Assembly: GCA_963745835.1 (NCBI GenBank)
Contig: CAVUZH010000025.1
Location: 64,001 to 128,000 of the forward strand
DNA: 64,000 nt
Direction of reading: 5' to 3'
Origin: an uncultured delta proteobacterium
GTDB lineage: Bacteria > Desulfobacterota > Binatia > UBA9968
Shown: positions 1,227 through 3,315 of the stretch, piece by piece
Layout of the letters: every line of letters starts with the position of its first letter
Numbering within the stretch: position 1 is the stretch's first letter
Program-made: the position numbers and the translations under genes
Notes under the pieces: model-generated
Seen by the model: only the letters and a program-made list of their open reading frames with translations
What the model was told of the DNA's origin: nothing
Database searches by the model: none

Positions 1227-1275
1227 TCTAGCAGGGTTCCTGAAAAAACTCTGATTGCAGGCGGCTCCAAAAGAC

Positions 1276-2214
1276 TCAGAGGCGAGAGTAAGAAAAAGAG
1301 TAGATGTTGATAAAAGAGTTAAGAAAAGAGAGAAGTAAGAGAAAGAAAGAGAAAAGAGAGAAATGGGAGATTAAAAGAAGAAAAGAGATATAAGGTAGAA
1401 AAAATAGGATAGAAGAGAAAAGAAGAAGAGAGAAGAAAGAAGAGAAGTAGAGAGAGGAAAGAAAAGAAGAAAGAAAGAGAAAAAAGGAGAGAAGGAAAAG
1501 AAAAAAAAAAATATAAAAAAAAAGAGGAGAGAAAAAAAAGAGAGAAGAGATATGAAAAAGATAAAGATGAAAAAGATAAGGAAGAGAGGAAAGAAAAGAG
1601 AGAATGAAGAAGGGAAAGATAAGAGGAAAAATATAGAGAAGATATAATAGATAAAGAGAGAAAGGAATATGAGGGAAGAGAAGAAAAAGATAGATAAAGA
1701 AGAGAGAAAGAAAAGATAAGAAGAGAAAGAAAATGAGAAAAAATAAGTTTGAGAAAGGAAAAGAAGATAAGAGAAAGAGGATAAGTAAAAGAGGAGAAGA
1801 AAATAGGTGAGATGGAGAAGAGGAGAGAAGAGAGAGAGAAGATATAGGATAGAAGGAGAGGGAAAAGAGAGAAGAGAGGGAAGAAAGGATAATAGAAAGA
1901 GAGAGAAGAAAAAGGAAAAGATAAAATAGGTATAGGAGAAAAGAAGGATAGATAAGGAGAAGAGAAGAGAATAGGAGAGGGTAAAAGAAGAAGAAGGGGA
2001 ATGAGGAAGAGAGAGAGAGAAAGAAAAGAATAAGAAGATAGACGAGAAGGGTGGATAAGAAAAAAAGAAAAGAGAATAAGAGAGAAAGAAAAGGTATAAG
2101 AAGAGAGAAGATAAGAGCCTCTAGATTCGGGATAGATTCTCTACTACCGCCCGGACGCATAGCGATATCCAGCGTAGCTTTCGATACGTCGATTCCGACA
2201 AACAAGCTCTCTAC
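1276..2214 (-). pseudogene. IS110 transposase/recombinase: first ~33 codons intact, remainder corrupted to low-complexity sequence
   Basis: VVESLFVGIDVSKATLDIAMRPGGSRESIPN followed by F/L/S-rich sequence that keeps IS110 motif spacing (FPFFFFYP ~ LPVVVVNP; LLYIFPLIFP ~ LLxSVPGIGP; SSLYFSS ~ AALYMAA; LLSFLNSFI ~ LLTILNSMI). Confidence 0.75.
1284..2117 (+). repeat. ~830 bp A/G-rich low-complexity tract
   Basis: Only one C (position 2043) on the + strand, in an otherwise GC-rich window. Confidence 0.95.
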
Positions 2215-2328
2215 CACAATCCAATCCTCCTTCCTGTTAACCCCCTCCAGCATGGCTCAACCTTCCACATGATGCGGGCTTATCAGCCCAGGCAACTGTT
2301 CGAGCTCTCGCAGAGGCAGGACGGGAAG
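1285..2328 (-). mobile_element. IS110-family insertion sequence (degraded in this consensus)
   Basis: DEDD-type N-terminus FVGIDVSKATLDIA on minus strand; AG (CT on element strand) at both 1285-1286 and 2327-2328; removing the element joins CTCAGAGGCG-AG-GCGCGCGAGA; no terminal inverted repeats. Confidence 0.7.
2254..2306 (-). ncRNA. Candidate IS110 bridge-RNA donor-binding loop (partial)
   Basis: Minus strand folds as GCUCGA-[ACAGUUGCCU]-GGGCU(GAUA)AGCCC-[GCAUCAUGUGGAAGG]-UUGAGC, i.e. stem / large internal loop / hairpin, directly upstream of the transposase. Confidence 0.55.
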
Positions 2329-2340
2329 GCGCGCGAGATT

Positions 2341-2407
2341 GGCATATGGCTGATAGCCTATGGCGCACAGATCGAACCAAGGAAACATACGCCGTAAGCC
2401 ACCTGCC
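2341..2407. repeat. Imperfect 22-bp inverted repeat (REP-like host element flanking the IS110)
   Basis: GGCATATGGCTGATAGCCTATG (2341-2362) matches the reverse complement of 2386-2407 at 16/22 positions. Confidence 0.55.
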
Positions 2408-2430
2408 AACTATCGTTACGGAGGTGAACC

Positions 2431-3315
2431 ATGGGTAAATTTCGTATTCTATCGCACGCGCGCCTGCAAGAATGGGTCGCGGAAGAGAGCGGCTATTTCA
2501 AGCAGGTCGGTTTGGATTACGAGTTCGTTGTCAAACCGGCCGCGGGCTGGTCCGCCCATGTAGCGTCTACCGAATCGGTGCCGGAGGAAATAAAAAACGG
2601 CGCCTTCGAATCGTATGAAGCCGGCCGAGGCTGCGACGTCAGCGCCGCTTGCCATTGGGCGGTGAATATGGCGGCTTCTGCGGGACACGGCCGCATGTGG
2701 GCCCATGCCTACTCCGTCACTCCTTCAGGCATTTTCGTGCCGCCTGATTCTCCCATCGAAAAACCAGCCGATCTGGCCGGAGTCGATGTGACCGTCGGCT
2801 ATCATTCGGGCAGTCACTTTTCTACCCTGCAGGCGCTTGAGACCTTTCTCAAGCCCGAAGAGATAAAGCTCCACTTTGCCGGTCTGCCGTTAGACCGATT
2901 AGCTTTGATGGTCGATCGAAAGGTCGGGGCGGCGAGCCTGTACGGCGCTCCGATGTACGTGCTGGAGCAGCTCGGGTTCAGGAAAATTGTCGACACGACG
3001 TTCATGATCGGATTCCTGGTCGCCGCCGAGGTTAAGGACAGCGACGCCAAGCTCTACTTCGAGGCGTTGCGCCTTGCGCAGGTCGCGATCGATCTGGAAC
3101 CCGAGCGCTACAAGCATTATTTTTTGAACGAGCTGCCGGAGCGCTATCACGCCATGGTCGATGTCCGGACCTTCGGTATCGGCGAGCGGCTGGTGTTCGA
3201 GCCCTATACTCGAGAGATGTTTGAGCAAACGCATCGTTGGATGATGAACTGGAAAATGTTTCCAGCGGAGCAGTCGGGAAATTGGGCTTATGACGACCGC
3301 GGTGTCTGTAGATGA
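2431..3315 (+). CDS. Solute-binding-protein-fold protein (NMT1/THI5-like) without a signal peptide
   Basis: RBS GGAGGT; EWVAEESGYFKQVGLDYEF, PDSPIEKPADLAG motifs; no hydrophobic N-terminus. Confidence 0.75.
   Translation: MGKFRILSHARLQEWVAEESGYFKQVGLDYEFVVKPAAGWSAHVASTESVPEEIKNGAFESYEAGRGCDVSAACHWAVNMAASAGHGRMWAHAYSVTPSGIFVPPDSPIEKPADLAGVDVTVGYHSGSHFSTLQALETFLKPEEIKLHFAGLPLDRLALMVDRKVGAASLYGAPMYVLEQLGFRKIVDTTFMIGFLVAAEVKDSDAKLYFEALRLAQVAIDLEPERYKHYFLNELPERYHAMVDVRTFGIGERLVFEPYTREMFEQTHRWMMNWKMFPAEQSGNWAYDDRGVCR

Follow-up and report, generated by a model that had tools for sequence, protein, structure and literature searches.

Two genes for NMT1-like binding proteins flank the locus described here, at positions 1226 and 2420 of the window, the stretch of 64,000 nucleotides that we analysed (contig CAVUZH010000025.1, from an uncultured delta proteobacterium).

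The interval between these genes holds the two halves of a REP-like repeat and, between a CT dinucleotide at the inner edge of each half, a segment that, on sequence comparison, very probably represents one copy of a small IS110-group insertion sequence, inserted at the CT core of the repeat (1287–2326, minus strand). The same high probability covers, jointly, our reading of 2255–2305 (minus strand) as the donor-binding loop of an IS110-group bridge RNA. In the direction in which the element reads, the features are as follows (L numbers denote loci, G numbers genomes).

2327–2401, minus strand: left half of the REP-like target repeat, ending ...CGCGCGC and the core CT (2328–2327); 79–87% match to repeat copies in relatives (L028–L033)
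2306–2326, minus strand: start of the element as assembled, made up of TCCCGUCC, the predicted 3′ strand of the basal stem of a lost target loop, and a linker; ungapped to intact copy L193 from its nt 124
2255–2305, minus strand: putative donor-binding loop; matches RNA model R1 (below) base for base, its left strand equal to the right end ACAGTTG-C of intact copies
2116–2253, minus strand: readable 5′ part of the recombinase open reading frame, 46 codons from the ATG at 2253; within the 211 nt that are 91.0% identical in DNA to L193, L190 and L118
1287–2115, minus strand: base-converted rendition of the element body (recombinase gene and right end), recognized by its composition and by mutual information with L193
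1285–1286, minus strand: second core dinucleotide CT, at the right end; the repeat halves in L031 overlap by exactly CT
1227–1284, minus strand: right half of the REP-like target repeat, reading CGCCTCTGAG...; the genome has 41 matches to it, its own among them, and relatives have many

Repeat copies without an insertion set the boundaries. In two of them, L031 and L033, the equivalent of 2401→2327 runs directly into that of 1286→1244 through one common CT, so the element lies between the CT at 2328–2327 and the CT at 1286–1285, the two dinucleotides that a first-pass annotation of the window, made from its letters, had named as junctions. The same CT on both sides of the element and a single CT in the empty site are the arrangement of the IS110 group (no terminal inverted repeats). 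In G004, a relative of the same genus with 95% identical flanks (L012, G004:C481), the flanking NMT1-like genes are 12 nt apart and the orthologous site lacks the right half of the repeat; from this spacing, the whole of window 1227–2419 is extra DNA. Repeat and element are thus both insertions into an apparent operon.

The core of the repeat reads ...TCGATTTTTCGCGCGC-CT-CGCCTCTGGATCTTTTTGAGCAGCCTGC..., and the family is abundant in the window's genome (G000) and in its relatives. By manual count, about 24 of the 40 other right-half matches in G000 read CGCGC-CT, while the left half in its window form occurs there once. One element copy is set in this genome against about 40 empty target repeats. 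The REP-like repeat would be the natural target of the element, with insertion at its CT core.

The letters and positions of the candidate loop were all as the first-pass annotation had given them on the minus strand. An outer stem of GCUCGA (2305–2300) and UUGAGC (2260–2255) encloses a left loop strand, ACAGUUGCCU (2299–2290), an inner hairpin (GGGCU 2289–2285, GAUA 2284–2281 and AGCCC 2280–2276) and a right loop strand, GCAUCAUGUGGAAGG (2275–2261), which contains GGAAG at 2266–2262. Upstream of the loop, the core CT at 2328–2327 is followed by TCC at 2326–2324. Folding of the 83-nt stretch alone was not better than that of its shuffles (z = −0.81; 43 of 200 shuffles equal or better), and its minimum-energy fold paired the junction with the GGAAGG strand and did not form the proposed loop; an Rfam search at the locus gave no match. 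That the loop is more than chance follows from the flanking repeat, which confirms the junction, from stems kept in 21 left ends, and from a guide that equals the right end of the element.

Directly after the loop, the frame that opens at ATG 2253 starts MLEGVNRKEDWIVVESLFVGIDVSKATLDIA, which we take to be an N-terminus typical of IS110-type recombinases. Translation probably starts not at ATG 2253 but at GTG 2217, which follows GGAGGA (2225–2230); across the relatives, the Shine–Dalgarno sequence and a TTG or GTG are kept, and the ATG is not. A Pfam search of the window's 325-codon frame, of which 46 codons are readable, found no match.

The remainder of the recombinase body is unreadable in the window because its bases have been converted. 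On the plus strand, 1287–2115 is a purine stretch with 1 C in 830 nt. Across 121 offsets, the median mutual information between this stretch and L193 was 0.007 bit, whereas offset −6 gave 0.12 bit; 100-nt pieces gave 0.24–0.55 bit at offsets drifting from 0 to −6. On the coding strand, C and T are unchanged, G has become T in ~85–90% of cases, and A has become T or stayed A; the plus-strand equivalent is C to A and most T to A. Mutual information and base mapping together identify the stretch as a colinear, base-converted rendition of a roughly full-length body, 829 nt long against 857 expected, with one end falling exactly at the right end of the element.

Another C-free stretch, ~1 kb long (T 474, A 281, G 242, C 8), lies at G000:C22:~126880–127865 between the copies of a ~55-bp direct duplication; local and whole-genome mutual-information scans, which tolerated no indels, found no source for it. 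We regard both C-free stretches as probable assembly or basecalling faults, and the base-converted stretch serves as a warning on this assembly.

Intact relatives and their predicted two-loop RNA

We searched related genomes at the DNA and protein levels and found homologous elements. Comparing copies with one another fixed the ends in G069 (two copies) and in G042 (three copies used); these elements are 1.2–1.25 kb long, start CT/TGTAT... and end ...ACAGTTG/CT (the slash marks the element boundary). Closer relatives came from scans with the window's own loop sequence, which gave five metagenome contigs (L190–L194) and, among the matches listed for genome contigs, L118. In the genome contig scan, 9 of the 119 stretches listed passed the context filter, a looser filter gave more, and the rest look like chance matches.

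Over window 2326–2116 (211 nt, ungapped), the 91.0% identity of L190, L193 and L118 compares with 84–91% for L191, L192 and L194. The whole elements in L190, L192, L193 and L194 measure 1,165–1,169 bp (about 1,166 bp) and are inserted in the same REP-like repeat as the window copy. They start CT/TCTATCTTC (CT/TCTATC) and end ACAGTTG/CT, after which the repeat continues as CGCATCTGA... or CGCCTCTGA..., or, in L190, as TGCATCTGA....

The left end of L193 extends from nt 26 to about nt 196 (about 171 nt to the first ATG), and its right end a few tens of bases past the stop codon, a long left end and a short right end being the arrangement of the IS110 group. The protein of one relative (P0001) matched both PF01548 (DEDD_Tnp_IS110, 2.7e-24) and PF02371 (Transposase_20, 4.4e-20). 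Read by eye, the circle junction of the G069 element would bring TTGACT of the right end, as a candidate −35 box, to 17 nt from TATATT of the left end, as a candidate −10 box; the corresponding putative boxes of the window-type copies (GTGATT and TATCTT) are weaker.

We aligned 21 related left ends and derived a consensus structure with RNAalifold. It comprises two modules, each a loop that encloses a hairpin of its own. In the upstream module, a stem of 15 pairs closes the loop and the hairpin has 4 pairs; in the donor module, the outer helix has 6 pairs and the hairpin 5. Pairing is kept in 96.3% of cells across the 21 left ends (98.4% in helix 93–100/147–154 and 91.3% in helix 108–112/121–125). 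The stems also covary across homologous elements, as the first-pass annotation had anticipated of a real structure: both partners have changed in 14 of the 30 pairs, whereas shuffles gave 4.2 ± 1.7, with none of 500 reaching 14, and slid controls, whose partners had been moved by 1–3 columns, gave 2–6. The upstream module contributes most of this covariation; little variation is seen in the donor module, where two-sided changes affect 3 of 11 pairs.

From the 21 sequences we built a covariance model (R1), which gave 150.6 and 146 bits on the intact copies L118 and L191, both outside its seed, and 68.9 bits on the window, where the donor half alone fits. The donor loop is present in the window copy, and the target-loop half of the model, which does not fit, leaves that copy with one loop of the two.

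Nine other PF01548 matches in G000 (L002–L010) come from at least five different IS110-family elements, one of them with an internal TAG and one split. None of the nine matches R1, and 0 of 8 other IS110 loci of the genome on which the model was run gave a match.

An Rfam search of three intact copies returned a weak antisense match to sX15 (RF02234; 22.2 bits against a cut-off of 55, E 1.4). It spans the whole bridge-RNA region on the opposite strand, at L190:88–247 and L193:1081–1241 (22.2 and 19.3 bits). It was rejected as evidence for the RNA; sX15 might itself be an IS110-associated RNA. Inside the downstream gene, at window positions 2998–3154 (minus strand), Rfam reported an mgtE motif with 19.7 bits against a cut-off of 200 (E 0.049), very likely by chance.

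Guide segments, element ends and insertion sites

For the guides, we applied the geometry of Durrant 2024 (PMC11208160), where, in the part of that paper available to us, left guides pair with the bottom strand, and so read like the top strand including the core, and right guides pair with the top strand. Right-end boundaries had been set independently of the loop, by copy-versus-copy comparison and repeat continuity. The left strand of the donor loop, ACAGUUGC, equals the right end ACAGTTG-C in 18 of the 18 loci with a located right end; these belong to a set of 26 loci, the remaining 8 of which are contig ends or copies in which the right-end motif was not found. Intact copies thus end ACAGTTG-CT, the end that had been predicted for them from the window's loop.

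The right strand of the donor loop changes together with the left end: it reads GGAAG in the 5 window-type copies, whose left end starts TCT, and GCAAG in the 20 other loci with a located left end, whose start is TGT, a difference that amounts to one compensating change in one clade. The earlier proposal that GGAAG matches the element's own end holds in so far as GGAAG pairs with CT-TC(T). It fails in its last letter, however, for the natural right donor is TCTATC... and not TCC; the perfect match of CT-TCC with GGAAG is found at the truncated junction of the window copy only and is a result of the loss of 98 nt described below.

The strands of the upstream loop read like the sequences that flank each insertion, as listed here.

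G069 copies, left strand: UCACUCCU, matching the flank ...TCACTC-CT
G069 copies, right strand: GGGUAAG, the complement of CT-TACCC
Window-type copies, left strand: AUCGCGCCU, matching the flank ...CGCGC-CT
Window-type L192 and L193, right strand: AUGCGAG, matching CT-CGCAT
Window-type L194, right strand: AGGCGAG, matching CT-CGCCT
Window-type L190, right strand: AGGCAAG, against CT-TGCAT, 5/7

In fixed alignment columns, the right target guide agreed with its own flank at 4.43 of 5 positions and with the flanks of other loci at 1.28 (14 loci), and the left target guide agreed with its own flank at 4.4 of 7 positions and with those of other loci at 1.94 (20 loci). Left guide counts fall to 2–3 of 7 in L026, L027, L051, L131 and L183; the low counts in L026, L027 and L183 reflect a register shift, and L131 is without a match. 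The flanks of the window copy agree with the target guides of window-type copies at 5 of 7 and 4–5 of 5 positions.

A second loop with a guide resembling CGCGCGC-CT, which the first-pass annotation had predicted for intact copies, was found in the window-type elements: the left strand of their upstream loop carries ATCGCGCCU (ATCGCGC-CT), and the right strand carries (U)AUGCGAG or AGGCGAG, matching the flanking CT-CGCAT or CT-CGCCT. The guide matches assign a donor-binding role to the loop in the window and a target-binding role to the upstream loop. Family covariation and the agreement of guides with element ends both support the original claim of a donor-binding loop of an IS110-type bridge RNA, and the predictions, made from one truncated copy, were borne out.

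A chance hairpin in the 5′ UTR, or a translational or attenuator structure without a guide role, is highly improbable, for although the single-sequence fold is unremarkable and no Rfam family was found, the loop strands match element ends and insertion sites at many loci, and the stems are kept while the loop strands vary with the flanks.

An intact left end would thus encode, in order, a −10-like box, a short leader, the target-binding loop and the donor-binding loop. The strands of the target-binding loop would read like the left target with CT and like the complement of CT with the right target; in the donor loop, the left strand would read like the right end (ACAGTTG-C), and GGAAG would pair with CT and the bases that begin the left end. 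The DEDD recombinase would, by analogy with IS621, use this RNA to join the circle junction and the target repeat, exchanging strands at CT. The case for an RNA-guided function of the element is built on sequence comparison and on this analogy.

The element appears to represent a new compact subfamily, although the supplement of Durrant 2024 may already list it or its covariance models. It would add a compact (about 1.17 kb) bridge-RNA subfamily from uncultured soil-type bacteria, in which four guide segments, donor, core and a natural REP-like target are all readable from sequence, and which is useful as raw material for collectors of bridge recombinases.

The truncated left end of the window copy as assembled

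Compared with L193, the window reads ...CGCGCGC-CT and then directly TCCCGTCC (L193 nt 124), so that L193 nt 26–123 are missing. With these 98 nt (left-end nt 1–98), the window copy has lost the −10-like box, the leader and, apart from the 3′ stem strand, the target loop, and is left with a left end of 73 nt. In the family structure, the columns of 2306–2326 pair with a 5′ strand that is absent from this copy. With its target loop missing, the window copy can no longer choose a target; it is defective, or has been rendered defectively by the assembly.

The first-pass annotation had seen no target loop and had offered deletion, true absence or supply in trans as explanations. The loop is indeed missing from the copy as assembled, with 98 nt gone; supply in trans found no counterpart, there being no other element copy in G000 by blastn of 2116–2430 or tblastn of the 46 residues, and the donor-loop motif occurring at one locus in the 7.28-Mb genome, the window's own. 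Allowing up to 2 mismatches, we looked for the truncated junction in 401 genomes of the phylum and matched it exactly in G000 only; inexact matches stood at the level of a reversed-pattern control, and 0 of the 9 examined were followed by the loop.

Two species of the window's genus carry an orthologous decayed remnant of the element type (L022, G001:C183; L023, G006:C23), with a recognisable donor loop, a broken target-loop stem and a reading frame cut after about 40 codons. We rejected these as a second instance of a short left end, since both keep a decayed stretch upstream of the stem and give 55 and 32 bits with R1. Also rejected was a deletion between the CGCGCCT repeats of the target flank and the left target guide, or between two copies of GGGTCG, as its product would keep GGGTCG.

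The truncation may have been made by the recombinase itself, either by reintegration into the REP target of a partial circle with the true right end and an internal left endpoint, or by a half-match deletion that joined the left junction to a site inside the element; taken together, the two routes are less likely than not, with only slightly more weight than either of the rivals below. A canonical target, with flanks that fit the family's target guides, has its core CT precisely at the left breakpoint, as a reintegrated partial circle predicts and a random deletion does not, and the new junction CT-TCC pairs 5/5 with GGAAG. Partial circles with one canonical donor end, and reinserted partial IS110 fragments, are reported in the available part of a recent preprint (10.64898/2026.08.14.744561), and donor-only recognition is reported as sufficient for excision in that of another (10.64898/2026.08.31.748434).

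Against a recombinase-made truncation stands the isolation of the window copy, the sole one of its kind among the matches listed: the six other window-type loci (L118 and L190–L194) keep the target loop, the full left end being kept in L190–L194 and the contig of L118 starting inside the leader, and the exact junction is confined to 1 of the 401 genomes, G000 itself. The internal site reads CG-TCC, so that CG stands in place of the core CT; the window's right end cannot be read, and neither a donor element nor a source of the target loop was found in G000. That the window copy is a natural, recombinase-made derivative with the donor loop only, which might still excise by donor-only recognition without choosing a new site, is for us somewhat doubtful.

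A spontaneous deletion after normal insertion, with its breakpoint at the element's first base by chance and with TC microhomology (CT/TC...CG/TC), is unlikely. The breakpoint would have to coincide with the boundary of element and target within 2 nt, and a microhomology of two bases is weak, even though TC does follow both breakpoints, decayed remnants of the family exist (L022 and L023, with their broken stem and cut reading frame), and this is one copy among about 40 empty targets.

Similarly unlikely is an assembly error, by which the truncation, like the converted body, would be an artefact and the organism would carry an intact two-loop element. Several features of the assembly point that way: the adjoining 829 nt are plainly not true sequence, the second C-free stretch is flanked by its ~55-bp duplication, and genome contamination is 9.33%. 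Public sequencing runs containing part of 2116–2900 amount to 20 rows from 9 studies, and the best of them contain a 0.82 share of its sampled words, a shortfall that would fit an error but from which we conclude nothing. Yet 2116–2430 is clean, is ungapped against the intact copies and runs cleanly into the repeat, and no usefully long repeat explains a skip of 98 nt; one at CGCGCCT would resume at GGGTCG and not at TCCCGTCC.

Relation to known systems

A further study of IS621 and its bridge RNA is reportedly that of Hiraizumi et al. in 2024. As IS621 of Escherichia coli is described in the available part of PMC11208160, it has in common with the present element a DEDD recombinase with PF01548 and PF02371 (seen here in relative P0001), a non-coding RNA in a long left end with the target loop before the donor loop, left guides with the top-strand sequence and right guides with its complement, inclusion of the core CT in all four pairings, a REP-type target and, on the reading by eye given above, possibly promoter boxes split between the two ends (−35 in the right, −10 in the left). 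The present element differs from IS621 in its smaller size (about 1,166 bp, of which ~171 nt are left end and a few tens of bases right end), in its donor (ACAGTTG-CT-TCTATC or -TGTAT) and in having no Rfam model match; the window copy, furthermore, is without a target loop.

The IS1111 group, with its seekRNA, shares the recombinase family and the guide logic. The accessible text of PMC11208160 gives a guide RNA in a long right end and long subterminal inverted repeats (7–17 bp) as the marks of that group, whereas here the RNA precedes the gene, in the left end, and the right end is very short. A reading of the element as IS1111-type was rejected for these reasons, and the RNA in a long left end, together with the very short right end, places it in the IS110 group.

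The Pseudomonas elements ISPpu9, ISPpu10 and ISPa11, in the descriptions available, likewise insert at a fixed position in one family of extragenic repeats and leave many targets empty; their host lineage and repeat family differ from those of the present element, and the likeness is one of description. Tobes and Pareja (2006) is said to be a reference on REP-targeting insertion sequences.

With the partial IS110 circles and fragments of the first of the two preprints (10.64898/2026.08.14.744561), the window copy has in common a canonical right-end donor half, an internal start and a proper target. In the available part of that preprint, these products come mostly from large expanded loci, with circles observed, whereas here there is one small copy in a doubtful assembly. 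If the truncated copy is real and recombinase-made, it would be a field example of the partial half-match products that appear in the available parts of recent preprints.
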